Source: a virus
Virus genome (UHGV): UHGV-0204578
Length of the DNA: 31,092 nucleotides
Strand: one strand, 5' to 3'
Positions 2,994-30,735 of this stretch are shown piece by piece. The notes under the pieces were generated by a model. That model did no database searches and had not been told where the DNA came from. It worked only from the letters and a program-made list of their open reading frames with translations. The number at the start of each line of letters is the position of its first letter. Within the stretch, counting starts at the first letter, position 1. Made by a program: the position numbers and the translations under genes.

Positions 2994-3568
2994 ACCGGGC
3001 CTCCGGTTGTATCGCCGCCTTTCAGGACGCCAGTATGCTGATGCGCATCAACCACGATCCCGTTAGAACTCATCGCTCCGCCGCCCTGGGTAACGCCACC
3101 ATTGATCACCACTTCGCTGTTAATGCGCGTGCGGTCAGCCTCCAGTACAAACTCACTGGTTTTCATGGTGATGTTGTCAGCAGCCTCAATGACCATTGAT
3201 TTGATGCCCCTGACATACCAGCGCCCGGTGGCGGGTTCGTATTCAAACCAGCCACCGTCAGGATGTTCTGTCACGCAGGCGTCCGCCGACGTCGACGGTG
3301 GTGCGAACTGATTCGAATAGACAGCGGGCAGCGCAAAGGCGGTTTCCAGATTGCCGCCCAGACTCAGCAGCACCACCTGCTCACCTTCCGATGGTCGCCA
3401 CCATGTACGGGCATTCCCGGCACGCAGCGTCAGCCAGCTGATCCAGTTGGTTTCAAGCTCGCCCGTTTTCACCCGGCAAAGCCAGTTTTCCCTGTCCACT
3501 TCGGTGACTACCCCTGTGCGGATCAGGTTGGTGATAAGGCGCATGATTTCGGTTAATTGTGCGTTCAT
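2990..3568 (-). CDS. V: Baseplate spike / tail protein gpV
   Basis: 192-aa ORF; N-terminus and overall pattern resemble P2 gpV; first gene downstream of the late-promoter dyad at 3615..3632. Confidence 0.85.
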   Translation of the reverse strand: MNAQLTEIMRLITNLIRTGVVTEVDRENWLCRVKTGELETNWISWLTLRAGNARTWWRPSEGEQVVLLSLGGNLETAFALPAVYSNQFAPPSTSADACVTEHPDGGWFEYEPATGRWYVRGIKSMVIEAADNITMKTSEFVLEADRTRINSEVVINGGVTQGGGAMSSNGIVVDAHQHTGVLKGGDTTGGPV

Positions 3569-3614: not shown

Positions 3615-3632
3615 TGTATCAGTGCTGATACA
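3615..3632 (-). promoter_or_regulatory. Late promoter activator site (TGT-N12-ACA dyad) upstream of the V-W-J-I-H operon
   Basis: tgtatcagtgctgataca lies inside a perfect 20-bp palindrome ttgtatcagtgctgatacaa between S stop and V start. TGT-N12-ACA is the conserved Ogr/B-dependent late-promoter element of P2/186. Confidence 0.55.
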
Positions 3633-8610: not shown

Positions 8611-9444
8611 TCAGCAATTGGTCAGAGTGTCAACGGGGGCGTTACCGCCTGTTGCACGCTGGCGGTAGTCCTGGCGGCTGTCTTCATGACTCAGCTTGTC
8701 CACCAGTTCGTTAAAGGCGGTTTGCTGTACCTGCAGGGCAGTCTCCAGCTCAGACAGGCGTTCTTCCTGCTCAGACAGGGATTTTTCGGTGCGTGCGCTC
8801 AGGTTCTGCTGCTCAGTGGCGACCAGCTCCACGGCCTTATGCACATCAGAGAACCGGGCGTCATCGGACTGCTCTTTTTTGGTAAACAGCGCCGTGACGC
8901 GGGCAAACAGGGACGGTTTGTCGTCCTGGATTTCTTCCAGTTCGATCACCGTTTCCTCTGCAGCGGTAAAGAGATTGGCAGGATTCTGCTTGCGGTTTGC
9001 CAGTGGGTTATGGGCTGCACTGGCGCTGAATGTCAGCATTTCAGTGCCCAGACTGGCAGGGTCATCAGTGGCAGCCAGGCCGACCAGGTAGGCTTTGCCC
9101 GTATCAGCGAACTTCGGGCTGACTTCCATAGAGGTGAATAATTTCTGGCCTTTTTTCACCAGTTCCACCAGGGACTCCGTTGGCTCAACGTCGGCATACA
9201 GCGCCATCTTGCCTGCCAGCGGACCTTCCGTGATTTCTTCAGCAAACAGCGCCGTCACCTTGCCGTAGCGGTTAAAGGTGCTGTCCGGCAGATAAGACTT
9301 GATGTGCTCAAGGTTAATCAGCGCGGTATACACCGCCGGGTTGTAGCTGGCTGCCATCTGTTCCAGCCATTCACGCTGGATTTCGCGTCCGTCGGTGGTG
9401 GCACCTTCCACCCCGATGCGAAAACGCTTTGCTTTCACTGTCAT
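8611..9444 (-). CDS. O: Capsid scaffolding protein gpO
   Basis: 277-aa ORF with acidic coiled-coil C-terminus; P2 gpO-like; first gene of the leftward late operon. Confidence 0.9.
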   Translation of the reverse strand: MTVKAKRFRIGVEGATTDGREIQREWLEQMAASYNPAVYTALINLEHIKSYLPDSTFNRYGKVTALFAEEITEGPLAGKMALYADVEPTESLVELVKKGQKLFTSMEVSPKFADTGKAYLVGLAATDDPASLGTEMLTFSASAAHNPLANRKQNPANLFTAAEETVIELEEIQDDKPSLFARVTALFTKKEQSDDARFSDVHKAVELVATEQQNLSARTEKSLSEQEERLSELETALQVQQTAFNELVDKLSHEDSRQDYRQRATGGNAPVDTLTNC

Positions 9445-9522: not shown

Positions 9523-9540
9523 TGTACCGACAACCACACA
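9523..9540 (-). promoter_or_regulatory. Late promoter activator site (TGT-N12-ACA) for the O-N-M-L... operon
   Basis: tgtaccgacaaccacaca in the O/P divergent intergenic region, centred about 87 bp upstream of the O start codon. Confidence 0.5.
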
Positions 9541-9586
9541 AACCGCAGGCGGGGAAAGCCTTCATTCAAGGCTGTAGGTTTGTGCC

Positions 9587-11353
9587 ATGAACACCACACT
9601 GACACCCGCAGATCTCGATCCCCGTCGGCAGGCCATGCTGCTGTACTTTCAGGGATACCGCGTCGCCCGCATTGCTGAAATGCTGGGCGAGAAAGTTGCA
9701 ACTGTTCACAGCTGGAAAAAACGCGACAAGTGGGGTGACTATGGGCCGCTGGATCAGATGCAGCTCACCACCGCCGCACGCTACTGCCAGCTCATTATGA
9801 AGGAGCACAAAGAAGGGAAAGATTTCAAAGAAATTGACCTGCTGGCGCGCCAGTCGGAGCGCCACGCGCGGATCGGCAAGTTTAACAATGGCGGCAACGA
9901 AGCCGACTTAAACCCTAACGTCGCCAACCGCAACAAAGGCCCACGCCGTCAGCCGGAAAAGAATGTTTTCACCGATGAACAGATTGAGAAGCTGGAAGAA
10001 ATCTTCCATTCCTCCATGTTCAACTACCAGCGCCACTGGTGGGAAGCCGGAAAAACCAACCGCATCCGCAACCTGCTGAAGTCACGCCAGATCGGCGCGA
10101 CCTTCTATTTTGCCCGTGAAGCCCTGATTGACGCCCTGCTTACCGGACGTAACCAGATTTTCCTTTCTGCCAGTAAGGCTCAGGCCCACGTCTTTAAACA
10201 ATACATCATCGACTTCGCCAAAGAAGTCGAGGTGGAGCTGAAAGGCGATCCGATGGTGCTTCCTAACGGAGCCACGCTTTACTTCCTCGGCACCAATGCC
10301 CGCACGGCCCAGAGTTATCACGGCAACCTGTATCTGGATGAATATTTCTGGATACCGAAATTCCAGGAGCTGCGCAAAGTGGCTTCCGGGATGGCTATTC
10401 ACAAAAAATGGCGACAAACCTATTTTTCCACGCCATCCAGCCTGACCCACAGTGCTTATCCGTTCTGGTCCGGTGCGCTGTTCAACCGTGGACGCAACAA
10501 AGCTGACAAGGTGGACATCGACCTGTCCCACAGCAATCTGGCCCCCGGCCTGCTGTGCGCAGACGGGCAATACCGCCAGATAGTCACCGTGGAAGATGCG
10601 GTGCGCGGCGGCTGTAACCTGTTCGACCTCGACCAGCTACGCTTGGAGTACAGCCCGGACGAATACCAGAACCTGCTGATGTGCGAGTTCGTGGACGATC
10701 TCGCGTCCGTGTTCCCGCTCAGCGAACTGCAGGCGTGCATGGTGGACAGCTGGGAAGTCTGGACCGACTTTCATGCACTGGCCCTGCGCCCGTTTGGCTG
10801 GCGCGAAGTGTGGATCGGTTATGACCCGGCAAAAGGTACGCAGAACGGCGACAGCGCCGGATGCGTGGTGGTGGCACCGCCAGCCGTGCCAGGCGGTAAG
10901 TTTCGCATTCTTGAGCGTCACCAGTGGCGCGGGATGGACTTCCGCGCCCAGGCTGACGCCATCAAAAAACTGACCGAACAGTACAACGTGACCTATATCG
11001 GTATCGACTCAACCGGCGTCGGTCACGGGGTTTACGAGAACGTGAAAGCGTTCTTTCCTGCCGTCCGGGAGTTTGTCTACAACCCCAACGTTAAAAACGC
11101 CCTGGTACTCAAGGCCTACGACATTATCAGCCACCGCCGTCTGGAGTTTGACGCCGGACATACCGACATTGCGCAGTCATTCATGGCAATCCGTCGCGCC
11201 ACCACCGCCAGTGGCAACCGCCCGACCTACGAAGCCAGCCGCAGCGAAGAAGCCAGCCATGCCGATCTGGCATGGGCAACCATGCACGCACTGTTTAACG
11301 AACCGCTGCAGGGCGAGTCCGCCAATACCAGCAATATTGTGGAGATTTTTTGA
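9587..11353 (+). CDS. P: Terminase large (ATPase) subunit gpP
   Basis: 588-aa ORF (P2 P is about 590 aa) with strong P2 gpP-like N-terminus (..QAMLLYFQGYRVARIAEMLGEK..TVHSWKKRDKW). Confidence 0.9.
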   Translation: MNTTLTPADLDPRRQAMLLYFQGYRVARIAEMLGEKVATVHSWKKRDKWGDYGPLDQMQLTTAARYCQLIMKEHKEGKDFKEIDLLARQSERHARIGKFNNGGNEADLNPNVANRNKGPRRQPEKNVFTDEQIEKLEEIFHSSMFNYQRHWWEAGKTNRIRNLLKSRQIGATFYFAREALIDALLTGRNQIFLSASKAQAHVFKQYIIDFAKEVEVELKGDPMVLPNGATLYFLGTNARTAQSYHGNLYLDEYFWIPKFQELRKVASGMAIHKKWRQTYFSTPSSLTHSAYPFWSGALFNRGRNKADKVDIDLSHSNLAPGLLCADGQYRQIVTVEDAVRGGCNLFDLDQLRLEYSPDEYQNLLMCEFVDDLASVFPLSELQACMVDSWEVWTDFHALALRPFGWREVWIGYDPAKGTQNGDSAGCVVVAPPAVPGGKFRILERHQWRGMDFRAQADAIKKLTEQYNVTYIGIDSTGVGHGVYENVKAFFPAVREFVYNPNVKNALVLKAYDIISHRRLEFDAGHTDIAQSFMAIRRATTASGNRPTYEASRSEEASHADLAWATMHALFNEPLQGESANTSNIVEIF

Positions 11354-12465: not shown

Positions 12466-12559
12466 CCCTGACATCCCCCCCCCTCCACTAAATGAGGCCG
12501 CCAGCGGGCCAGAGGCTGTGCCGGATTTTGGCCATTTTACCCCGTTGCGCGCGCTCGTA

Positions 12560-12581
12560 TCCCCGCCACGCCTGCCCGCTT
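12560..12581. other. cos (cohesive-end packaging site) of the P2/186-like phage
   Basis: TCCCCGCCACGCCTGCCCGCTT; its reverse complement contains GGCGTGGCGGGGA, matching the P2-family 19-nt cohesive end (GGCGAGGCGGGGAAAGCAC) from memory. Lies just past Q, where cos sits in P2 and 186. The same 22-mer recurs at 24079..24100. Confidence 0.6.
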
Positions 12582-12611
12582 TATGTAGTGGTTTTCATGC
12601 ACCTGCATGAT

Positions 12612-19761: not shown

Positions 19762-20787
19762 ATGACCATCAGAAAACAGCCGAACGGAAAGTGGTTATGT
19801 GAATGCTACCCAAACGGGAGAGATGGCAAACGCGTACGCAAACAATTTGCGACGAAAGGCGAAGCCATTGCGTTTGAGAATTTCACCATGGATGAGGTAA
19901 ACAAGAAACCTTGGCTGGGAGAAAAGGAAGATCGGCGACAACTGTCAGAAGTGATTGAGCAATGGTATTCCCTGTACGGTCAGACACTCGCTGACCCTAA
20001 GCGATTAATGGCTAAGTTAAAAATCATTTGTAATGGACTTGGCGATCCCATCGCTTCTGAATTGACAGCAGGTGATTTCACAAAGTACCGGGAAGCCAGA
20101 TTAAAAGGTGAGGTCAAAAACGAAGATGGCGTGCTCATGTCACCGGTTAAGCCCAGAACGGTGAACCTTGAACAGCGTAACCTATCCTCAGTTTTTGGCA
20201 CACTGAAAAAGCTGGGACATTGGTCTGCACCCAACCCCCTCGCCGGTCTGCCAACTTTCAAAATTGCAGAAGGTGAACTGGCGTTCCTTGCTGCTGATGA
20301 AATCAAACGCCTGCTTGACGCATGTGCTGAATCTCAAAGTCCCAGTCTGCTAATGATTGCCAAGATTTGCCTGGCTACCGGGGCAAGATGGAGCGAAGCC
20401 GAAAACCTGCAAGGTAACCAGATATCAAAGTATCGAATTACCTATACCAAAACAAAAGGAAAGAAAAACCGAACTGTTCCTATTTCTCAGGAACTGTATG
20501 AAGAATTACCCAAAAACAGAGGAAAGTTATTCACACCATGCCGAAAGGCTTTTGAGCGTGCGGTAAAACGAGCTGGAATTGAACTACCTGAAGGTCAATG
20601 TACCCACGTTCTGCGCCACACTTTCGCCAGCCACTTTATGATGAACGGCGGAAACATTTTGGTATTGAGGGATATTTTAGGACACGCTGATATTAAAATG
20701 ACCATGATTTATGCCCATTTTGCACCTGATCATCTGGAAGATGCCGTTACCAAAAATCCACTTCATAACCTCAACTGGCATCGCTAA
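19762..20787 (+). CDS. int: Tyrosine integrase (P2/186 Int family)
   Basis: 341-aa ORF with C-terminal catalytic region HVLRHTFASHFMMNGGNILVLRDILGHADIKMTMIYAH (R..H..R..Y signature); reads toward the att core. Confidence 0.9.
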   Translation: MTIRKQPNGKWLCECYPNGRDGKRVRKQFATKGEAIAFENFTMDEVNKKPWLGEKEDRRQLSEVIEQWYSLYGQTLADPKRLMAKLKIICNGLGDPIASELTAGDFTKYREARLKGEVKNEDGVLMSPVKPRTVNLEQRNLSSVFGTLKKLGHWSAPNPLAGLPTFKIAEGELAFLAADEIKRLLDACAESQSPSLLMIAKICLATGARWSEAENLQGNQISKYRITYTKTKGKKNRTVPISQELYEELPKNRGKLFTPCRKAFERAVKRAGIELPEGQCTHVLRHTFASHFMMNGGNILVLRDILGHADIKMTMIYAHFAPDHLEDAVTKNPLHNLNWHR

Positions 20788-20904
20788 TAAATGGCGGCAT
20801 TTTGGCGGCAGAACACTAAAAACAAGTAAAACAAGCAAATACAGACTAACACTAACATCATGATTTAAAATAAAAAAATATGATTTTGTTAGTATAAAAA
20901 TGGT

Positions 20905-20949
20905 ATGTAGGAATTTCGGACGCGGGTTCAACTCCCGCCAGCTCCACCA
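20905..20949 (+). other. ssrA: att core: 45-nt copy of the 3' end of the tmRNA gene ssrA (fragment only)
   Basis: ATGTAGGAATTTCGGACGCGGGTTCAACTCCCGCCAGCTCCACCA matches the E. coli ssrA 3' terminus from memory. Sequence upstream is integrase coding/AT-rich arm DNA, so the full gene is not here. Confidence 0.75.
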
Positions 20950-20982
20950 AATGATGATCCGGATACGTCCGGTGAAGTACAG

Positions 20983-21017
20983 AAAGCCCGCATGGCACAA
21001 GCCCTGCGGGCTTTTTT
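20983..21017 (+). terminator. Intrinsic terminator downstream of the ssrA 3' end
   Basis: GC hairpin gcccgca...tgcgggc followed by TTTTTT. Confidence 0.55.
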
Positions 21018-21060
21018 GTGTCTGACGTTGTCCGAGAACATCCGGCTAAATCCGGTGATT

Positions 21061-21114
21061 ATTGGTATACGTTTAGGTATACGGTAGGATGTATACCTAA
21101 AAACGTATACCAAT
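21061..21114. promoter_or_regulatory. Inverted repeat of a 22-bp motif (ATTGGTATACGTTTAGGTATAC) upstream of the satellite integrase; candidate Int arm sites or int operator
   Basis: Arms at 21061..21082 and 21091..21114 are near-perfect reverse complements; a third copy (one mismatch) lies at 30515..30536. Confidence 0.5.
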
Positions 21115-21133
21115 TCATGAAGGAGCGGCCACA

Positions 21134-22327
21134 GTGGCACGGACAACACGCCCCCTTACCAACACCGAAGTTCTGCGCGCTAAGGCGTTAGAGAAGGATC
21201 TAACGCTGCACGATGGCGACGGGCTTTTCCTGATAGTGAAAACTAGTGGCAAAAAGCTCTGGCGCTTTCGCTATCAACGTCCGGTAACAAAGCAGCGGAC
21301 AATGATGGGGCTCGGTGCCTTCCCCGCCCTATCGCTTGCTGATGCCCGAGGATTAAGAGCGGATTACCTTGCCTTATTAGCCAACGGACTCGACCCGCAA
21401 ATTCAAACTGAAGTTGCAGAGGAACAGCAGCAAATAGCACTGGACAGTATTTTTTCAACGGTCGCCGCTAACTGGTTCCAGCTCAAAAGCAAAAGCGTTA
21501 CCCCTGATTACGCAAAAGACATTTGGCGCTCACTGGAGAAAGATGTATTCCCTGCCATCGGTGAGATCCCCGTTCAGCAAATCAAAGCACGGACACTGGT
21601 TGAAGCTCTTGAGCCAATCAAAGCTCGTGGGGCGCTTGAGACTGTACGTCGACTGGTGCAGCGCATTAACGAGATAATGATTTATGCCGTAAACACTGGC
21701 CTGATTGATGCTAATCCAGCATCAGGTGTTGGGATGGCCTTTGAGAAGCCCAAAAAACAAAACATGCCGACGCTTCGGCCAGAAGAGTTACCAAAACTCA
21801 TGCGTTCTTTGGTGATGTCAAATCTCTCTGTTTCGACTCGCTGTTTAATTGAATGGCAACTCCTGACGCTTGTGCGCCCTTCTGAGGCCTCCGGTGCTCG
21901 TTGGGCAGAAATCGATCTCGATGCAAAGCTTTGGACTATTCCAGCCGAACGGATGAAGGCGAAACGTGAGCACATAGTTCCTCTCTCAACTCAGGCATTA
22001 GAGATTCTCGAAGTGATGAAACCAATCAGCGCTCACCGTGAACATGTTTTTCCCAGTAGGAATGATCCAAAACAATCCATGAATAGCCAAACAGCTAATG
22101 CAGCTTTGAAGCGTATAGGATATGGAGGAAAATTAGTTGCACACGGTTTACGATCTATTGCAAGTACTACATTGAATGAAGCGGGCTTTAATTCAGATGT
22201 GATAGAAGCGGCATTAGCTCATACAGATAAAAATGAGGTAAGAAGAGCATATAACCGCTCTATCTATTTAAAGCAAAGAATAGGCATGATGGAATGGTGG
22301 GGTGAAAAAGTTTATAATAAAAACTGA
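21134..22327 (+). CDS. int: P4-family integrase (IntA-like tyrosine recombinase)
   Basis: 397-aa ORF, GTG start with AAGGAG 8 nt upstream; N-terminus MARTTRPLTNTEV...DGDGLFLIVKTSGKKLWRFRY typical of P4/CP4-57 integrases; sits about 185 bp after the ssrA 3' end as intA does in E. coli K-12. Confidence 0.9.
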   Translation: MARTTRPLTNTEVLRAKALEKDLTLHDGDGLFLIVKTSGKKLWRFRYQRPVTKQRTMMGLGAFPALSLADARGLRADYLALLANGLDPQIQTEVAEEQQQIALDSIFSTVAANWFQLKSKSVTPDYAKDIWRSLEKDVFPAIGEIPVQQIKARTLVEALEPIKARGALETVRRLVQRINEIMIYAVNTGLIDANPASGVGMAFEKPKKQNMPTLRPEELPKLMRSLVMSNLSVSTRCLIEWQLLTLVRPSEASGARWAEIDLDAKLWTIPAERMKAKREHIVPLSTQALEILEVMKPISAHREHVFPSRNDPKQSMNSQTANAALKRIGYGGKLVAHGLRSIASTTLNEAGFNSDVIEAALAHTDKNEVRRAYNRSIYLKQRIGMMEWWGEKVYNKN

Positions 22328-22366
22328 AAAAAAAATAAAAGCTCATTCTTATGAGCTTTTATTTTC
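22328..22366. terminator. Bidirectional intrinsic terminator between int and the cargo operon
   Basis: Hairpin aaaagctcat-tctt-atgagctttt flanked by an A-run on one side and a T-run on the other. Confidence 0.65.
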
Positions 22367-22964
22367 CTGCATTACCTTTCGAATTATCAGCATCCTGTTT
22401 ATTTTGAAAAGTCATAAAGGTATTATACCAACTAGAAACACGGAATATAGCAAGAACAGCTGCTAATGCAGAGAATACTGAGTAAATAAATATAAAGTAA
22501 GCAAAAAAACTAAATATTAATAACGCATACTTATAGAAAACACCTAAATAATAATACATAAAAGCATTATTTATGAGAATACTACTATAGGCCTTGGTAA
22601 CCAAGGCCGTAATAATAGTTAGTAATTGCAACAATATAAAATGGACAAAAGTTGCATTGACTGACATATAAGGAGAATATTCTACTTCCCCACTTTCACT
22701 TTTTTCATCACCAGTTATTATTTTTTTAAAGGCCTCATCACCAATAGCTATCCACATAGCAAAACCACCTAATGAAAAGCCCAGAAGGTTCGGCATCAAT
22801 GACAGGATATCATTCCACCACCCCTGATGAGACCAAGATGGATAAAGAATCACTGTCATTAAAAAAGCACACCAAAAATAGCGACTTTTAAACACAGCCC
22901 CAGCGCCACCATAGATTTTCCAGTATCTAGCCAATGCACTGGTTGATTCTTTTTCTTCACTCAT
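22359..22964 (-). CDS. Uncharacterised integral membrane protein (201 aa, about 4 TM helices); downstream gene of cargo cassette
   Basis: Hydrophobic segments YFWCAFLMTVILYPSW, ILSLMPNLLGFSLGGFAMWIAIG, VHFILLQLLTIITALV, YALLIFSFFAYFIFIYSVFSALAAVLAIF; start overlaps the upstream gene stop (TAATG); AT-rich. Confidence 0.7.
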   Translation of the reverse strand: MSEEKESTSALARYWKIYGGAGAVFKSRYFWCAFLMTVILYPSWSHQGWWNDILSLMPNLLGFSLGGFAMWIAIGDEAFKKIITGDEKSESGEVEYSPYMSVNATFVHFILLQLLTIITALVTKAYSSILINNAFMYYYLGVFYKYALLIFSFFAYFIFIYSVFSALAAVLAIFRVSSWYNTFMTFQNKQDADNSKGNAGK

Positions 22965-23893
22965 TACTTTCTCAGAAGCCTCTTAAATTCATCTGCTAAT
23001 GATTTTGCCCTTAATAACAATAGCTCAGAAACCGATGTTACGTCAGAATCATATGGTTCGACCCTTTGAAGTGGTACGTCACTTGAGGCATGAACCTCTA
23101 CTAATCCCGCCTCATTAATCCTGCGTATACTAACTTCACCATTTCTCGAAGCAATAAGAGCATCCTGTTTTAACTCACCATCAGGTTTAATTTCCTGACC
23201 TCGCTCAGATTTATATGTTTTATCCTCTTCAATAACCCCAATACGCTTGAAGCGCTTTTGCATAACATTTTCTGCAGAAGCGAGATCATCCGGATTAGGA
23301 CGTCGAGTGACCATATTTATACACGTAATACCTTTTAAAGAAAGCATACGTTCTACACTATCTGGCTCAGTCAATATTGTAACATTAACCTTTCCAAATT
23401 TCTCTATAATTCTCTCGTGAGAAAATATCCCATTCAGAAAGCTTTCTATTTGTCTTGGTGTAAGATGCCGGCTCTTGTCCTGCATTTCGTAAACTAAAAG
23501 ATGACTTGCGGGTAGAAAAACAAAAGAGAATCTAGCTACATTTGGTTTTAAATTATCAGGTATATTTATTCTTTCCTTTTCCTCATCTGAAGCTATATCT
23601 TTCTTTACGATATCGAACCAGTCGCCATTAACGTCAATATCTGTATACTTTAGAATTTCCCCCTCAAAAGGTTCACTAATTACCTGACCTTTCTTATAAG
23701 GATAAAAATATGATAAAGTTGCGAATGAGTCTCCTCTTAAATTAACATTGCTCGCATTTTTTCTTGCCATCCTGAATAACTCGACATACTTTTCTGGCGA
23801 GTGGGGGTGCATGGATATATTCACAGCCCCGTAAGTTAATTTTTTTGCCCTTGCCATTTTTATCTTTGTTCCCTTATTTCGTGAAAGAATCAT
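22964..23893 (-). CDS. Uncharacterised soluble protein (309 aa; 297 aa if start is ATG at 23857); upstream gene of cargo cassette
   Basis: Intact AT-rich ORF with no TM segments and no catalytic motif I recognise (no Walker A, no GS..DxD nucleotidyltransferase motif, no HxH); translationally coupled to the membrane protein gene. Confidence 0.7.
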   Translation of the reverse strand: MILSRNKGTKIKMARAKKLTYGAVNISMHPHSPEKYVELFRMARKNASNVNLRGDSFATLSYFYPYKKGQVISEPFEGEILKYTDIDVNGDWFDIVKKDIASDEEKERINIPDNLKPNVARFSFVFLPASHLLVYEMQDKSRHLTPRQIESFLNGIFSHERIIEKFGKVNVTILTEPDSVERMLSLKGITCINMVTRRPNPDDLASAENVMQKRFKRIGVIEEDKTYKSERGQEIKPDGELKQDALIASRNGEVSIRRINEAGLVEVHASSDVPLQRVEPYDSDVTSVSELLLLRAKSLADEFKRLLRK

Positions 23894-24078
23894 ATATACA
23901 TGAAAGGCTTAGGGAAAACTATGTCTTAACGCACACCATCTAATAGCCAAAGGAAATAAAAATACAATTCATTATTCAAAATGGGAATATTATTTCCTCC
24001 ACGGATAATGCTCATTGGTTCCACTACCAGATTCGTAAAAATTAAAAAAACAACATCCAAGAACAGCGCGCAATGCTC

Positions 24079-24100
24079 TCCCCGCCACGCCTGCCCGCTT
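24079..24100. other. cos site of the P4-type satellite, identical 22-mer to the helper cos
   Basis: TCCCCGCCACGCCTGCCCGCTT identical to 12560..12581; flanks also similar (ttttaatgcaggtgcatga versus ttttcatgcacctgcatga). Located between cargo and psu, where P4 cos lies. Confidence 0.6.
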
Positions 24101-24264
24101 CTTGGGGCGCTTTTAATGCAGGTGCATGAAGTGGCTCAGGCCGCGCCGCGACTGGCGCTGGTCGGGAGTACAGGAGCGGGAAAACGCATGCAAAACCATG
24201 CACCCTTTGGATGCATGGCTTAATTCGGGAAAAATGGCGGGAATTACGAGGATTTTTTGACAGG

Positions 24265-24831
24265 TTACGGCGCGGCCAGTTCGGCGCGTCGACGGGTGTA
24301 AATCATGCTCTGTGCAGGGGTGAATTTTTCACGATTATCATCCCGCGAAGGCGCGTCAGGCCTGTATCCGATGGCCGTTAAAATATCGCTATCCTGTGCC
24401 GAATAATTAATTTCATTTCCTGCGGCCAGCCAGACGGAAAGAGCTTCTCGCAGGTATGCTACTGAACGGTCAAGCGCACGGTTTTTTATCATCGTGGGCT
24501 GGTTCTTAATTCCCATCAGCTCGGGTGCCAGTGCGGCGGCCAGCTCCGCGCCGTTCTGCTGCATAAAATCGTACAGCCGGTTACGGATGCTGATGCGCTG
24601 CACCTCCTCATGCGAGGAAATGTAGCGACCGGCGGCCTGATTAATCTCCCATTTTTTTACGTCAATAATATCTCGCAGCGTCTGTAATCTGCGGGAACCT
24701 GATGCGTTGTCATCCAGCAATAATTCCTGATATTCCTGTTCTGCGGCGGTCAGTTCGGCTTTACAGTTCAGCCACGCCGTTTTGTTCGTCTGACAGGCAT
24801 CGAACGCCTGCTGTAAGGTCAGGGTGGTCAC
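24265..24831 (-). CDS. psu: Psu (polarity suppression / capsid decoration protein)
   Basis: 188-aa ORF (GTG start) with strong similarity to P4 Psu (..LQQAFD.CQ.NK.AWL..K.EL.AAEQEY..NQAAGRYI.SHE.VQ.ISIR.RL.DFMQQ..). Confidence 0.85.
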   Translation of the reverse strand: MTTLTLQQAFDACQTNKTAWLNCKAELTAAEQEYQELLLDDNASGSRRLQTLRDIIDVKKWEINQAAGRYISSHEEVQRISIRNRLYDFMQQNGAELAAALAPELMGIKNQPTMIKNRALDRSVAYLREALSVWLAAGNEINYSAQDSDILTAIGYRPDAPSRDDNREKFTPAQSMIYTRRRAELAAP

Positions 24832-24847
24832 GGGTTGTCTCTCCTGA

Positions 24848-25093
24848 TTAATGGTGGAACGGTGAGCTGTAGCAGCTTTTTACCCGGCGGGGTGTAACGG
24901 GTACTGTCGGCACCGGTGCGGGTTTCTCATCGACGACCGGGGAACGGATCACCTCAAAGATGGACTCATGCGTTTTGAATGTCGCCGAGCAGTGCACATT
25001 CTGGCACTGGAGGTAACTCTCTTTGACGCTGTCAGACATATAGCGGCTGGTGCGAACGTGGGCCGCTGTGCGACAGAAAGGGCAGCGCATCAT
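24848..25093 (-). CDS. delta: Delta/Ogr-family zinc-finger late-gene activator
   Basis: MMRCPFCRTAAHVRTSRYMSD...YLQCQNVHCSATF mirrors P2 Ogr (CPLCQHAAHARTSRY...HQCQNVNCSATF). Confidence 0.85.
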   Translation of the reverse strand: MMRCPFCRTAAHVRTSRYMSDSVKESYLQCQNVHCSATFKTHESIFEVIRSPVVDEKPAPVPTVPVTPRRVKSCYSSPFHH

Positions 25094-25827
25094 GACAGTA
25101 ACCCTCGTGCTTTCAGATCGGCTTCACGTTCCTGCATTTTTTCCTGCCAGACTTTTCGCTGACCGGGCGTGGCCGCAACGTCATGCTCCATATGTGGCAG
25201 CGTGGAGGCCGCCAGCCCTGTTTTAAAAAGCACTGGTTCATCAGTCAGACGGATATTGCAGTCCTTCACCGCCTGCTCAAGCCATGATTTCACCTTATGC
25301 ATAACGGCATGCTCTGGTTCGACATAGCCCTGATGCCCGATGGTGTTGGCAAGCGGATTTTCTTTAACCAATATGCTGAGTTTCATTGCTCTAACGAGTG
25401 CGCCGCAGGTTTCACGTAGGGCGGCATCGAGTTCATGCTCTGCATACTGGCTGAGTACGCCGTGATGCGCCTGACGGTATGTTCTGGCCGTGCTGTCACA
25501 GGCTCCCCGAAGGCTGTCCAGCTCGAAAGACAGCACCTCAGCCATGTTGTCACATTCCAGTGCCAGCTCCCGCCGTGCCACGCGCGCAATATGGCGTTGT
25601 TTCAGCTCGTCGGTAATGACAGCACCACCGGCACGAAAGGCGGTGCGCCATGCACCGGAATCATTGCCGTTTTCCTGCTCCAGTTCAGTTTTTTGCGTTT
25701 TCACCTGGCTGATGGCCGTCGTGGTTTCGTCCATGCGTCGGGCATTGGTCAGATGTGCTTCTCTGGCCGTCTCAAGACTTTCTATTGCGGGTTTAAGGTA
25801 GTCGGGAATAACAGCGGTCTGAGTCAT
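25090..25827 (-). CDS. sid: Sid (capsid size determination external scaffold)
   Basis: 245 aa from ATG at 25827 (GAGGAGA RBS); position and length as P4 sid, upstream of delta and psu; helical, Gln/Glu-rich. The track ORF start at 25893 is an upstream extension. Confidence 0.75.
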   Translation of the reverse strand: MTQTAVIPDYLKPAIESLETAREAHLTNARRMDETTTAISQVKTQKTELEQENGNDSGAWRTAFRAGGAVITDELKQRHIARVARRELALECDNMAEVLSFELDSLRGACDSTARTYRQAHHGVLSQYAEHELDAALRETCGALVRAMKLSILVKENPLANTIGHQGYVEPEHAVMHKVKSWLEQAVKDCNIRLTDEPVLFKTGLAASTLPHMEHDVAATPGQRKVWQEKMQEREADLKARGLLS

Positions 25828-25899
25828 GTCGGGTCTCCTCTTCGTTTCAATCTGAGGAGATTCTGCCGCGCCGGACACAACAACACGATTCATTGCCGT

Positions 25900-25917
25900 T
25901 GTGGCAAAAATGGCACA
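25900..25917 (-). promoter_or_regulatory. Psid late promoter activator site (TGT-N12-ACA)
   Basis: tgtggcaaaaatggcaca centred about 81 bp upstream of the sid ATG; same dyad type as the helper late promoters. Confidence 0.6.
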
Positions 25918-26004
25918 AACAGACCTTAAAACCCGGCTGGCCAGAGAAAGGTCTCATGAAAACATTACTCACCGTTTGTTTTTTTACTTATAACTATTCA
26001 CTAC

Positions 26005-26114
26005 TGTTCACTGAAAAGAAAAAGATAAGTAATACAGTAAGTTAAAGGGTGAACAGTTGAAGGTCTGACTGTTCACCGTCTGTTCACCACTGTTCACCTT
26101 TCAGTTTGTTCAGC
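26005..26114. repeat. Iteron cluster (TGTTCACC type), candidate alpha-binding ori/crr element
   Basis: Exact TGTTCACC at 26070, 26081 and 26091 (10 to 11 bp spacing), inverted GGTGAACA at 26048, degenerate copies at 26005 and 26107. TGTTCACC is the P4 type I iteron. Confidence 0.65.
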
Positions 26115-26367
26115 CAGTCAGCCACTTAGACTTTTTGGCGATTAAAAAACAGAAGTATATAAACAAAAGTAATCAGCAATGGGCCACCGGTTTGCCAACG
26201 TTTGCCAAAAAACGGCCAACGTTTGCCACTGTATAAAAATCGCTCTGTTGTGTGGTGGAGTACTACAAAATGACTTGTTGCCCTGAGGGAAAATATTCAC
26301 AAAATAGAGAGCTACCCGAAGCCGGACGGACACGACCGGCACTGTATGGACTTTGTGAGGTAGCCCG

Positions 26368-26634
26368 ATGCACACCGTTTTTTCTTCCCCGTCTTCTGCC
26401 CCTGCCGCGCCGCTGATGCCGGTTTCTGATACCGTTCACGAACGCTTTATCCGTCTGCCCGAAGTGATGCATCTGTGCGGCCTGTCCCGCTCGACCATTT
26501 ACGACCTCATCAGCCGGGAAGCCTTCCCGAAACAAATCTCCCTCGGCGGAAAAAATGTGGCGTGGGCGCAGTCTGAAATCACTGCATGGATGGCGGATCG
26601 CATTGCCGAACGTAACCGGGGCTATGACGCATGA
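26368..26634 (+). CDS. alpA: AlpA/Vis-family small DNA-binding regulator
   Basis: 88-aa ORF with the AlpA-type HTH segment [49 protein letters not shown]. Confidence 0.75.
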
Positions 26635-26761
26635 TGATGATCGCTCAGCAAACAGCCCCTTTTTCTGGCTTGCTTCTTTTCGCCATTTCCAGGTATAGTT
26701 TTCCCGCTGTCGCAAAATCGACAGCCGGGCGTGGAAACCCGAGCAACTCGAAGGCGACACC

Positions 26762-26785
26762 AGACGCGCCATGCGTCTTTTTTTG
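26762..26785 (+). terminator. Intrinsic terminator inside an untranslated leader
   Basis: agacgc-gccat-gcgtct hairpin followed by TTTTTTT, in the roughly 400-bp gap between alpA and the next RBS-bearing start. Confidence 0.55.
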
Positions 26786-27032
26786 TGTCGCAACTAACGC
26801 CACAGAGCGCCAGATAATGGCGTGGTGTGCGGATCGTCGTGCAGACGTCACTTTGTGTCTCCTGTCCGCAATCGCATATCATGCTGTCATGTCAATGGTA
26901 GCTCAGGCGGGGCAGCCCTCGGGCTGGCCGGTATTCTTCGAGGCCGGTATTTCCACCCCCGTCTGGGCTATCGCCACTGAGCGTGGAAACTCCGGCGATA
27001 GCAATAATTTGCTACTCGAAGGAGGTTGCCTT

Positions 27033-27227
27033 ATGGCTACGACCCTCACCCCGTCACAGCCTCAGTTTGTCTTTGTGTTTGCCGCCGTCCGTCGTGCAGA
27101 CCGTAAGCCCCGTATCTGTATGCTCCGCACCGTTGCCGGTGACGAGCACGCCGCACGTCTTTCCCTCGTTCGCGATTACGTCCTCTCGTTCGCTGGCCGT
27201 CTGCCGGTTGCGGAGGTGCGCGCATGA
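27033..27227 (+). CDS. Hypothetical small protein (64 aa)
   Basis: ATG at 27033 preceded by AAGGAGG (7-nt spacing). The upstream in-frame 134 codons of track ORF 26631..27227 contain the terminator, look non-protein-like and are rejected. Confidence 0.5.
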
Positions 27228-27451
27228 GACACACCACCATTACCGCCCGTGACCTCGAATGCCTTGAGCACATGCGCAACGTCGGCCAGCTCGTCAATGA
27301 GCTGATGCAGGTGCAGGACTGTACGGCCGTTCGTCGTGACCCTGCTCAGCAGTCACAGCTCACCTCCGTGATTTACCTTATGACCGCCCAGCTCGACGGC
27401 GTGGTTGAGCGCTGCAATCAGCACTGGCTGACCGGGGAGGGCAACGTATGA
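27224..27451 (+). CDS. Hypothetical small protein (75 aa)
   Basis: ATGA-coupled to the previous ORF, GGAGGTG RBS. Confidence 0.55.
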
Positions 27452-27768
27452 AACAGCCATTACCGCCCGTATTACGCGCCGCGCTGTATCGTCGCGCCGT
27501 GGCCTGTGCATGGCTGACGGTGTGCGAATGCCAGCACCGCTACCCGCACCTCACCCTCGACGCGCTGGAAAGCGCCATTGCCGCCGAGCTGGAGGGCTTC
27601 TATCTGCGCCAGCACGGCGAGGAAAAGGGCCGTCAGATTGCCTGTGCATTACTGGAAGATTTAATGGAAGCCGGGCCACTGAAAGCCGCGCCGTCACTGT
27701 CCTTTCTCGGGCTCGCGGTGATGGATGAACTTTGCGCCCGTCACATCACATCGCCTGTACTGCACTGA
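27448..27768 (+). CDS. Hypothetical protein (106 aa)
   Basis: ATGA-coupled to the previous ORF, directly upstream of alpha. Confidence 0.55.
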
Positions 27769-27782
27769 GGGAGAAAATAACA

Positions 27783-30116
27783 ATGAAAATGAATGTAACG
27801 GAAACCGTAAAACAGGCCTGCGGCCACTGGCCGCGCATTCTCCCGGCGCTGGGTGTGAAGGTCATTAAAAACCGCCATCAGGCCTGCCCGGTATGCGGCG
27901 GCTCTGACCGCTTTCGCTTTGACGATAAAGAGGGGCGCGGCACGTGGTTCTGTAACCAGTGCGGCGCGGGTGACGGCCTTAAACTGATTGAGAGGGTATT
28001 CGATGTATCTGCCTCAGAGGCCGCCCAAAAGGTGAATGCTGTCACCGGCAACCTGCCGCTGGTTGCCCCGGAGGTGATTGCGGCCGCAGAGGCTGAAACC
28101 GATGCCGACCGCAAAGCGGCGGCCGAGCTGGCCGTAAAACTCATGGAGAAGACCCGCACGGCTGCCGGCAATGCCTACCTGACCCGCAAGGGCTTCCCCG
28201 ATAGTGAATGTGTGATGCTGACGGCCACACATAAAACCGGCGGTGTGACGTACAGTGCCGGGGATTTGGTTGTTCCGCTGCATGACCATTCCGGCGCGCT
28301 GGTTAATCTTCAGCTTATCAATGCTGAGGGTCTCAAACGCACCCTGAAAGGCGGCGCGGTGAAAGGGGCATGCCATATCATCGAAGGGCAGAAACAGGCA
28401 GGAAAACGCCTGTGGATAGCAGAGGGCTATGCAACAGCACTCACCGTGCATCACCTGACTGGCGAAACCGTCATGGTGGCGCTGTCGTCCGTGAACCTTC
28501 TTTCTCTGGCGAGCCTTACCCGACAAAAGCACCCGGCCTGTCAGATTGTCCTCGCCGCCGACCGCGACCTCAGCGGGAACGGCCAGACCAAAGCCGCAGC
28601 GGCTGCACTGGCTTGTGAGGGCGTTGTTGCCCTGCCGCCGGTATTTGGTGACTGGAATGATGCGTTTATGCAGCAGGGTGAGGACGCCACACGCAAAGCT
28701 GTCTATGGTGCCGTCCAGCCAGCCACACAAAGCCCGTTCGACACCATGAGCGAAGCCGAATTTACCGCCATGAGCGCCAGCGACAAGGCTTTGCGGGTAC
28801 ATGAGCATTACGGCGAAGCGCTGGCGGTGGATGCGAACGGCCAGCTCCTGTCCCGCTATGAAAACGGCATCTGGAAAAATATCCCTGCCGCCACTTTTTC
28901 ACGGAATGTGGCTGATTTATTCCAGCGCTTACGCGCCCCGTTCTCATCCGGGAAAATCGCCTCGGTGGTGGAGACCCTGAAACTGATTATTCCGCAGCAG
29001 GATACACCTGCGCGCCGTCTGATTGGTTTTCGTAACGGGGTGCTGGATACCCAAAGCGGGATATTCAGCCCACACAGCAAATCGCACTGGCTGCGCACCC
29101 TGTGCGATGTGGATTTTACCCCGCCGGTGGACGGGGAAACGCTGGAGACGCACGCGCCGAACTTCTGGCGCTGGCTCGACCGTGCGGCCGGTAAAAATCC
29201 ACAAAAACGCGACGTGATTCTGGCCGCGCTGTTTATGGTGCTGGCGAACCGTTACGACTGGCAGCTCTTTCTCGAAGTCACCGGTCCCGGTGGAAGCGGT
29301 AAAAGTATTCTGGCCGAAATTGCGACCCTGCTCGCCGGGGAAGATAACGCCACGTCAGCCGATATCGACACACTGGAAGACCCGCGCAAGCGTGCCTCCC
29401 TGATTGGCTTCTCGCTTATCCGTCTGCCAGACCAGGAAAAATGGAGCGGTGACGGCGCAGGACTTAAGGCCATCACCGGCGGCGATGCGGTCTCAGTTGA
29501 CCCGAAATACCAGAACCCATACTCAACACATATTCCGGCGGTGATTCTGGCCGTGAACAACAACCCCATGCGCTTCACCGACCGCAGCGGCGGTGTGTCG
29601 CGCCGCCGGGTGATTATCCACTTCCCGGAGCAGATTGCGCCGGAGGAACGCGACCCGCAGCTCAGGGATAAAATTGCGCGCGAGCTGGCCGTGATTGTGC
29701 GCCAGCTTATGCAGAAATTCAGCGACCCGATGACTGCACGCGCACTGCTCCAGTCGCAGCAGAACTCCGACGAGGCACTCAGCATCAAGCGCGATGCTGA
29801 CCCGACGTTTGATTTTTGCGGCTATCTGGAAATGCTCCCGCAGACCAACGGGATGTTTATGGGGAATGCCAGCATCATCCCGCGTAATTATCGTAAATAT
29901 CTCTATCATGCGTATCTGGCCTATATGGAGGCCAACGGATACAGAAACGTGCTCAGCCTGAAAATGTTCGGGCTGGGGCTGCCCATGATGCTGAAAGAGT
30001 ACGGCCTGAATTATGAGAAGCGGCACACCAAGCAGGGGATACAGACTAACCTGTCGCTGAAAGAGGAAAGCTACGGCGACTGGCTGCCTAAGTGCGACGA
30101 ACCCACAGCGATATAA
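27783..30116 (+). CDS. alpha: Alpha primase-helicase (P4 alpha family)
   Basis: Starts MKMNVTETVKQ... (GAGGGAG RBS), giving 777 aa, the P4 alpha length as I remember it. N-terminal zinc-binding primase motif CPVCGGSDRFRFDDKEGRGTWFCNQCGAGDG; Walker A GPGGSGKS in the helicase domain. Confidence 0.9.
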   Translation: MKMNVTETVKQACGHWPRILPALGVKVIKNRHQACPVCGGSDRFRFDDKEGRGTWFCNQCGAGDGLKLIERVFDVSASEAAQKVNAVTGNLPLVAPEVIAAAEAETDADRKAAAELAVKLMEKTRTAAGNAYLTRKGFPDSECVMLTATHKTGGVTYSAGDLVVPLHDHSGALVNLQLINAEGLKRTLKGGAVKGACHIIEGQKQAGKRLWIAEGYATALTVHHLTGETVMVALSSVNLLSLASLTRQKHPACQIVLAADRDLSGNGQTKAAAAALACEGVVALPPVFGDWNDAFMQQGEDATRKAVYGAVQPATQSPFDTMSEAEFTAMSASDKALRVHEHYGEALAVDANGQLLSRYENGIWKNIPAATFSRNVADLFQRLRAPFSSGKIASVVETLKLIIPQQDTPARRLIGFRNGVLDTQSGIFSPHSKSHWLRTLCDVDFTPPVDGETLETHAPNFWRWLDRAAGKNPQKRDVILAALFMVLANRYDWQLFLEVTGPGGSGKSILAEIATLLAGEDNATSADIDTLEDPRKRASLIGFSLIRLPDQEKWSGDGAGLKAITGGDAVSVDPKYQNPYSTHIPAVILAVNNNPMRFTDRSGGVSRRRVIIHFPEQIAPEERDPQLRDKIARELAVIVRQLMQKFSDPMTARALLQSQQNSDEALSIKRDADPTFDFCGYLEMLPQTNGMFMGNASIIPRNYRKYLYHAYLAYMEANGYRNVLSLKMFGLGLPMMLKEYGLNYEKRHTKQGIQTNLSLKEESYGDWLPKCDEPTAI

Positions 30117-30125
30117 CCTACCTCA

Positions 30126-30149
30126 GACCGGCAACAGCCGGTCTTTTCC
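30126..30149 (+). terminator. Intrinsic terminator after alpha
   Basis: agaccggc-aaca-gccggtct followed by TTTTCC. Confidence 0.6.
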
Positions 30150-30168
30150 TTTCTGGCCATTGCCACAG

Positions 30169-30455
30169 GGTGAACAATCCACTGCTCACCCTTCACCGTA
30201 TATTCACCCTGTATCACCATGAAATTATTGATAAAAAACCAGAGGTGAACAGTGTGAACAGTAAAACCTGAAAAAACTTTTTATCACCCCTCACATCGCC
30301 TGAGCGGACGGTTCCAGAACGAGCACAAATCACAAAGGTGAAGAGTCGACTGTTCACTCTTCACCAACCATTCACCACTTATCATTATGATATTAAAAAG
30401 AAAAAAAGAGAGGTGAACAGTGTGAACAGTTAAATGCAAAAAAACTTTTTTTTAA
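30169..30455. repeat. Two tandem ~168-bp repeats, each carrying TGTTCACC-type iterons (crr-like cis replication region)
   Basis: Units starting near 30169 and 30337 are clearly homologous; GAGGTGAACAGTGTGAACAGT occurs in both (30242 and 30410), with several TTCACC/GGTGAA half-iterons. Confidence 0.65.
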
Positions 30456-30514
30456 TGCGTTCCATTCAAAAAAACAGGTTTGCAAAACCAAAGTAAACAC
30501 TACAGCAAATCGCC

Positions 30515-30536
30515 ATTGGTATACGCTTAGGTATAC
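30515..30536. repeat. Third copy of the 22-bp GGTATAC-containing arm motif near the satellite right end
   Basis: ATTGGTATACGCTTAGGTATAC; one mismatch to 21061..21082. Confidence 0.5.
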
Positions 30537-30735
30537 AACTGAAAGTTGAATTGATAAATATTCAATAAAATCAAAATATTGAGAAAAATTTTCAGACTCC
30601 GCCAGCCCAATCATGATTGGACGGTGTAAGGACAACACCAACAAAAACAGGAAGTTAGAAGTCTCAGCAAAACACCGACCAGACGGTGAGGAGACATAAA
30701 AGGATACGCAAAGGAGCCGCGGCTCCTGGTAACAT

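Follow-up and report, generated by a model that had tools for sequence, protein, structure and literature searches.

A predicted Ogr/Delta activator-binding site at the Psid late promoter of a P4-like satellite adjoining a P2-like helper prophage

Results

The stretch of DNA analysed here (the window) is the whole 31,092-nt sequence of the viral genome UHGV-0204578. Positions 1 to ~20800 hold most of a P2-like prophage, reversed with respect to the P2 map, and positions ~20950 to 30600 hold a P4-like satellite. In the P2-like part, referred to here as the helper, the genes I/J/W/V (V ATG at 3568) and S through O (O ATG at 9444) lie on the minus strand, P and Q run from 9587 on the plus strand, and the A replicase gene is followed by a repressor-like ORF and then by int (19762..20787). 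The closest relatives of the helper are Escherichia phage 500465-1 (Wadgaonvirus) and Klebsiella phage 4LV2017; Fels-2 is more distant, and P2 is not close. The satellite has its own int (21134..22327), followed by two cargo genes, a cos-like site, psu/delta/sid on the minus strand, ori-like iterons, one alpA-like and one Ash-family ORF, and the gene of the alpha primase. The core set of a P4-like satellite is present, namely int, psu, delta, sid, the alpA-like and Ash-family ORFs, the alpha primase, the cos-like site and a C4-type RNA, and the region 24200..27800 shares 75.8% DNA identity with P4 over 81% of its length. Matches to the immunity RNAs (c4-a1b1 targets, isrK and the C4 antisense RNA) at 26693..26978 scored above the Rfam gathering thresholds.

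Between the int genes of the helper and the satellite lies a piece of ssrA, the tmRNA gene, from its 3' end (...GGGTTCAACTCCCGCCAGCTCCACCA, 20861..20949), which was recognised by eye and by an Rfam match below the gathering score. Helper and satellite are thus arranged in tandem at the ssrA attachment site. ARAGORN found no tRNA or tmRNA in the window. A degenerate copy of the ssrA end (ACTCCGCCAGCCC) is present at the far end of the satellite (30597..30612), and the ATTGGTATACGYTTAGGTATAC repeats that flank the satellite (21061..21111 and 30515..30536) look like integrase arm sites. The junction of helper int, ssrA and satellite int was contiguous in none of 5426 complete E. coli genomes. The cos-like site of the satellite contains a 19-mer at 24073..24091, and the cos regions of the satellite (24066..24129) and of the helper (12547..12610, just beyond Q) are 78% identical over 64 nt and have the exact 22-mer CCCCGCCACGCCTGCCCGCTT in common. 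Such a match is what packaging by the helper terminase would require, and suggests that the two elements are a cognate pair.

Iterons of the GTGAACAG type (25995..26110) adjoin Psid, the promoter upstream of sid, and lie where P4 has its ori type 1 repeats. Iterons of the same type are contained in two direct repeats of 114 nt, separated by 168 nt, that follow alpha (30169..30450) and that we take to resemble the cis replication region of P4. The two cargo genes between the satellite int and cos (22359..23893, minus strand) encode a 309-aa DUF4747 protein and a 201-aa protein that is RexB-like in having about four hydrophobic segments. PADLOC gave no match for either of them. DUF4747 is on record for lambda RexA and for defence proteins of actinophages (PMC6426606). 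The pair, which lies in the variable hotspot of the satellite, is a candidate for a RexAB-like exclusion module.

The late operon of the satellite is made up of three genes on the minus strand. The gene sid (25090..25827, with its ATG at 25827..25825) encodes the 245-aa capsid size determination protein, for which full-length comparison with P4 Sid gave 66% identity (239 aa, E = 3e-116). It is followed by delta (24848..25093) and by psu (24265..24831; PF07455, E = 2e-89), the polarity suppression and capsid decoration gene that comes last in the operon. Upstream of sid, the initial annotation had placed an activator dyad of the same type as two helper elements, and inspection of the window sequence confirmed an 18-bp inverted repeat, TGTGGCAAAAATGGCACA, at 25900..25917. 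It reads tgtggcaaaaatggcaca on the window strand and TGTGCCATTTTTGCCACA on the sid (minus) strand, matches the hyphenated dyad TGT-N12-ACA perfectly, and has sid, delta and psu directly downstream on the same strand. On the basis of its sequence, its alignment with P4 and its conservation among 32 satellites, we annotate it as the predicted Ogr/Delta activator-binding site of Psid (TGTGCCA-TTTT-TGCCACA on the sid strand).

The pattern TGT-N12-ACA is a loose one. It occurs 7 times in the window and 7.59 +/- 2.7 times in shuffled sequences, and is thus not enriched; besides the dyads at 25900, 3615 and 9523, it matches at 9581, 9964, 22854 and 25515, all four within coding DNA. Since the pattern occurs at chance frequency, the case for the dyad must rest on position and conservation. 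The three dyads are found at the offsets of annotated P2/P4 sites, and with ~2.4e-4 per position, three matches within +/-1 nt of a prescribed offset would, by a rough estimate, have a probability of the order of 1e-10. That the regulation is readable directly from sequence, as had been proposed, is therefore true by way of position and homology, but not of the bare pattern, for which 7 matches stand against 7.6 expected.

The arrangement of the other promoter elements is that of an activator-dependent late promoter. The -10 hexamer, CAGAAT (CACAAT in P4), lies at 25860..25865 on the minus strand, 44-49 nt from the dyad centre, which corresponds to -12..-7 when the centre is taken as -55.5. 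From the position of the -10 and the 55.5-nt rule annotated for P2 promoters, transcription is predicted to start near 25853, at an A on the minus strand, with the dyad spanning -64..-47 and its centre at about -55.5. The predicted spacing from centre to start, 55.5 nt, is the distance annotated for P2 pO and pP. The mRNA would have a leader of 26 nt, with the Shine-Dalgarno sequence GAGGAG ahead of the sid ATG at 25827. In place of a canonical -35 hexamer there is a conserved block, TCG..TGTTGT (25877..25888, minus strand; -35..-24), and the -35 region itself reads TCGTGT. A consensus scan of 25700..26450 found no sigma-70 -35/-10 pair on either strand, which fits a promoter that depends on an activator.

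Conservation of Psid was assessed in loci anchored on Psu. Alignment of the Psu protein led to 46 loci, fetched from one-genome-per-species bacterial assemblies, and in 30 of them, all with the order sid-delta-psu and all from other species of Enterobacterales, a perfect TGT-N12-ACA was found in the same place. Together with P4 and the window they gave 32 distinct sequences. TGTG (-64..-61) and ACA (-49..-47) showed no variation among the 32, and the remaining arm positions were nearly fixed, giving the consensus TGTGCCA-N4-TGCCACA. By contrast with the arms, the four central nucleotides held 0.2 to 0.9 bits and comprised 12 different tetramers. Among orthologues, arms that are kept around a spacer that is free to vary are the footprint of protein recognition, and this is the pattern observed at Psid. 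In the -10 hexamer, C, A, A, A and T were invariant and G was found in 30 of the 32 sequences; positions -35..-33 and -29..-24 were likewise invariant.

Invariant columns make up 31% of the 170 non-coding columns of the alignment, and 7 invariant arm positions would arise by random placement with a probability of ~2.5e-4, a figure that is a guide only, since the aligned satellites are related. The invariance of the arms is in part phylogenetic inertia, the whole Psid region being fairly conserved and many of the loci related. The dyad TGTGCCATTTTTGCCACA recurs unchanged in satellites of Enterobacter, Scandinavium, Kluyvera, Citrobacter and Tatumella. Related late regions were found in about 1000 of the 5426 complete E. 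coli genomes, with at least 95% identity in only 4. Between the ori iterons and Psid, a further block, TCTCTGGCCAGCCGG on the sid strand (25933..25947; -94..-80), is mostly invariant in the 32 satellites.

The two helper dyads were compared with annotated sites of P2 and its relatives. The pV-type dyad TGTATCAGCACTGATACA at 3615..3632, on the minus strand like V, is a perfect 8+8 palindrome centred 55.5 nt from the V ATG (3568). In the RefSeq record of P2, the pV activator binding site is annotated at 10239..10266, and transcription is given as starting with the first nucleotide of V, which is ~55.5 nt away from the middle of that span. MAFFT alignment of the helper pV with that of P2 failed because the sequences are too diverged, and the comparison was instead anchored on the V ATG and extended to six other P2-like phages. 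GenBank reference phages were used for footprinting the helper sites; searching IMG/VR with V and O of the helper returned relatives that were 97-100% identical only, and these were of no use for the purpose. A perfect N12 dyad is present at about the same offset from V (within ~1 nt) in Fels-2, ST13-OXA48phi12.1, RE2010, ST11-VIM1phi8.4 and vB_YenM_56.17, and in the last three the flanks are unrelated to those of the helper, yet the position of the dyad is kept. At pV, P2 has an 11-nt spacer, while 186 and BIS20 retain the left half of the dyad only. With the geometry of the annotated P2 site and conservation among P2-like relatives, 3615..3632 belongs to the element class to which the initial annotation had assigned it.

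The second helper dyad, TGTACCGACAACCACACA at 9523..9540, lies between the divergent O (minus) and P/Q (plus) promoters and, following the P2 and 186 annotation, is common to both. Measured from its centre, the O ATG (9444) is 87.5 nt away and the P ATG (9587) 55.5 nt away. P2 has one annotated activator site for pO and pP, with both starts 55.5 nt from its centre, and 186 has one annotated B-protein site for pV and p12. The window shares with RE2010, ST13-OXA48phi12.1 and vB_YenM_42.18 one perfect dyad at a distance of 85.5 to 94.5 nt from the O ATG, and the site has one mismatch in P2 (95.5 nt from the O ATG) and in 186 (87.5 nt). The earlier assignment to the same element class thus stands for 9523..9540 too, but as a single bidirectional site for the O and P operons rather than the site of one operon. 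In 500465-1 we found a fourth dyad, TGTGTGAATAACGACACA, 85.5 nt ahead of the tail sheath gene, which lies outside the window.

The start codons of V (3568) and P (9587) are each 55.5 nt from the centre of their own dyad, which is the start distance annotated in P2, so that little or no leader is predicted for either mRNA. The N-terminus encoded from 9587 aligns with the P proteins of P2 and 186 (DPRRQA motif), and 9587 is therefore probably the true start. The P genes of P2 and 186 have a leader of ~23 nt. Over the P start codon there is another dyad, TGTGCCATGAACACCACA (9581..9598), with arms like those of Psid. It is not kept in RE2010 (TGG...) or ST13-OXA48phi12.1, and we rejected it as a site; it is probably the product of chance and coding constraint.

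That the satellite encodes an Ogr-like Delta of its own was borne out by its delta gene, whose 81-aa product is a single-domain zinc-finger activator of the Ogr/Delta family (PF04606, E = 5.4e-21). Against the Pfam Ogr_Delta model it scored 74.7 bits, the curated cut-off being 26.3, and its translation contains the motif CX2CX22CX4C (C4-C7...C30-C35). Pairwise comparison gave identities of 54% with P2 Ogr, 50% with 186 B and 46% with the N-terminal half of P4 Delta. The window holds no second gene of the family. In 500465-1, the nearest sequenced relative of the helper, a 72-aa Ogr homologue that is 56% identical to P2 Ogr is encoded directly after gene D. In the orientation of the window the position after D falls beyond the left end, and it is reasonable to place the activator gene of the helper (B/ogr) outside the window, as had been assumed. 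The satellite Delta shares 45% identity with this helper-type Ogr.

Discussion

TGT-N12-ACA is a feature of the late promoters of P2, whose activity depends on Ogr, a zinc-finger protein (PMC3931495). In the statements of PMC7552001 and PMC8628076 that cite Halling & Calendar 1990, P4 is trans-activated by Ogr, Delta is a homologue of Ogr, and both proteins promote late expression of P2 and P4. Here, we have described a dyad at 25900..25917 that matches the activator site of the P4 late promoter position for position, and which is for that reason real and almost certainly functional. It is highly likely that this dyad is the binding site of an Ogr/Delta-family zinc-finger activator at Psid, the promoter that drives sid-delta-psu on the minus strand. 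The reciprocal transactivation of helper and satellite that the initial annotation had put forward is supported by homology and by the genetics of P2 and P4, from which we infer it.

How the dyad may act is suggested by the elements around it. As Psid has a fair -10 and no -35, unaided RNA polymerase would be unlikely to use it efficiently. We propose that a dimer of a small C4 zinc-finger activator could bind to the half-sites TGTGCCA and TGCCACA near -55.5 and recruit the polymerase. Activation by the Ogr/Delta family needs the C-terminal domain of the alpha subunit of RNA polymerase, and this recruitment route of P2 and P4 may be used here as well. When the helper enters lytic growth, its Ogr could act on the satellite dyad and switch on sid-delta-psu; Delta could then sustain expression of the operon and also drive the helper promoters pV and pO/pP (and pF outside the window). 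Because delta lies inside the operon that the dyad precedes, Delta would boost its own synthesis after the operon has been switched on.

It is conceivable that the dyad is functional but answers only or mainly to the satellite Delta, in which case this pair would show transactivation in one direction or none. With only 45% identity between Delta and the helper-type Ogr, one-way or biased activation is possible for this helper and satellite, and Julien and Calendar are said to have observed in 1996 that activators of the family differ in promoter preference. The arms also differ, being TGTGCCA/TGCCACA in the satellite and TGTATCA/TGATACA (pV) or TGTACCG/CCACACA (pO/pP) in the helper, and the satellite consensus keeps its asymmetry, with C at positions 5 and 14. 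However, the pV arms of Fels-2 (TGTGCCA...TGGCACA) and ST13-OXA48phi12.1 (TGTGTCA...TGACACA) are the same as those of satellite and P4 Psid, so that the element classes of helpers and satellites overlap, and the matching cos cores point to a working pair. In P2 and P4, moreover, the divergence is similar, and yet both sets of promoters respond to Ogr as well as to Delta (PMC8628076, PMC7552001). We therefore consider an exclusive or predominant response to Delta unlikely, and a site that also responds to the helper activator the better reading of Psid.

The low information of the pattern raises the question of whether the dyad could be a chance occurrence of six specified bases with no function, given that matches in the window are no more frequent than expected and that 4 of the 7 are plainly coding coincidences. 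The alignment with P4 and the conservation among satellites effectively refute this: by position the dyad is orthologous to the P4 site, its arms are invariant around a free centre in 32 distinct satellites, and its spacing to an invariant -10 is fixed. The prospect of a chance match is accordingly negligible. There is only a very small likelihood that the dyad belongs to another system overlapping Psid, either a replication origin of the P4 type or a second, divergent promoter. The ori-type GTGAACAG iterons start ~80 nt away, and the conserved block TCTCTGGCCAGCCGG lies just upstream of the dyad, but the dyad itself is unlike the iterons. As for divergent transcription, the helper pO/pP shows that one dyad can serve two promoters; at Psid, however, the plus strand 44-49 nt from the centre reads TCTCAT, which is not -10-like, the first plus-strand gene starts no earlier than 26368, and neither P4 record annotates a rightward transcript from the position of the dyad. 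With no -10-like element and no gene on the far side, we rejected a divergent promoter there.

Within the preferred reading of the dyad as an Ogr/Delta-family site, we see a slim chance that satellites with a single-domain Delta have evolved a mode of recognition distinct from that of P4. TGTGCCA-N4-TGCCACA can be read as a direct repeat of TGCCA, spaced by 9 bp, inside the inverted TGT/ACA, and a distinct mode is suggested by this asymmetric site together with the lack of a second site near -18 and the 13/11-bp spacer of the PLL-equivalent site. If so, the satellite could rank its own promoters against those of the helper, and transactivation would be hierarchical rather than symmetric, within a pair that lies in tandem at ssrA with matched cos sites.

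The dyad is a textbook feature in an uncharacterised satellite and no discovery, and it adds little mechanistic weight, for what we describe is the classic late-gene switch of P2 and P4 re-read in such a satellite and in a helper that is not P2 (Wadgaonvirus / Fels-2 type). The comparison does yield a sharper consensus for the family, TGTGCCA-N4-TGCCACA followed by TGTTGT at -29..-24 and CAGAAT at -12..-7, and the dyad with CAGAAT is a reliable marker of Psid for annotating P4-like satellites. The window represents a natural tandem pair of helper and satellite with matched cos sites, suited to testing cross-activation. More unusual than the dyad are the tandem at ssrA, the matched cos sites, the leaderless-looking starts of V and P, the spacing of the PLL-equivalent site and the RexAB-like cargo.

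As in the window, the promoters pP, pO, pV and pF of P2 and p12, pV and pJ of 186 have no -35 and a hyphenated dyad, which lies ~55 nt upstream of the start, the spacing predicted in the window. As in the helper, P2 and 186 have a single site for the divergent capsid and terminase promoters, and their pV starts at the initiation codon of V, as is predicted for the helper. None of these P2 and 186 sites is a perfect N12 dyad (TGT-N12-CCA at pF and pO/pP, N11 at P2 pV, and a half-site ahead of the V homologue of 186), unlike those of the Wadgaonvirus / Fels-2-type helper studied here. The distance from the P ATG to the dyad centre also differs, being 55.5 nt in the helper and 78.5 nt in P2 and 186.

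Comparison of the satellite with P4 shows the same architecture with differences in detail. The P4 dyad TGTGTCAGGGCTGGCACA (X02534) aligns without gaps, column for column, with TGTGCCATTTTTGCCACA of the window, and in each of the two the sid ATG lies 81.5 nt from the centre of the dyad. The order sid-delta-psu, the TGTG...CACA arms, the position of the -10, the TGTTGT block and the lack of a -35 are as in P4, while the nucleotide sequences have diverged by ~24% overall and the central spacer is TTTT in the window and GGGC in P4. A site corresponding to PLL, TGTGTGGTGGAGTACTACA, lies upstream of the alpA-like ORF (26249..26267, plus strand) and aligns with P4 TGTAAGACAGCCTGAACA, which suggests an activator role for it. 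The spacer measures 13 nt, or 11 nt if the TGT at 26251 is taken as the left arm, whereas P4 has a perfect N12 dyad. The form found in the window is common to most satellites, with conserved arms and a variable centre, and a strict search for TGT-N12-ACA misses the PLL site.

P4 Delta footprints sites centred near -55 and -18. In P4 a second perfect dyad, TGTCCGGTGTACGTCACA, lies 38 nt downstream of the first, near -18, and the corresponding stretch of the window (25862..25880) lacks it. This second dyad was found only alongside the tandem 166-aa Delta, in P4 and in one near-identical locus, L036, and is absent from all the satellites with a single-domain Delta. Its absence suggests that regulation may differ in detail from that of P4. 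The Delta proteins differ in the same way, that of P4 being a 166-aa tandem duplication and that of the window satellite having 81 aa. The satellite thereby resembles phiR73, whose Delta is likewise 81 aa long, and other single-domain-Delta P4-like satellites, in which Delta consists of one Ogr-like domain.
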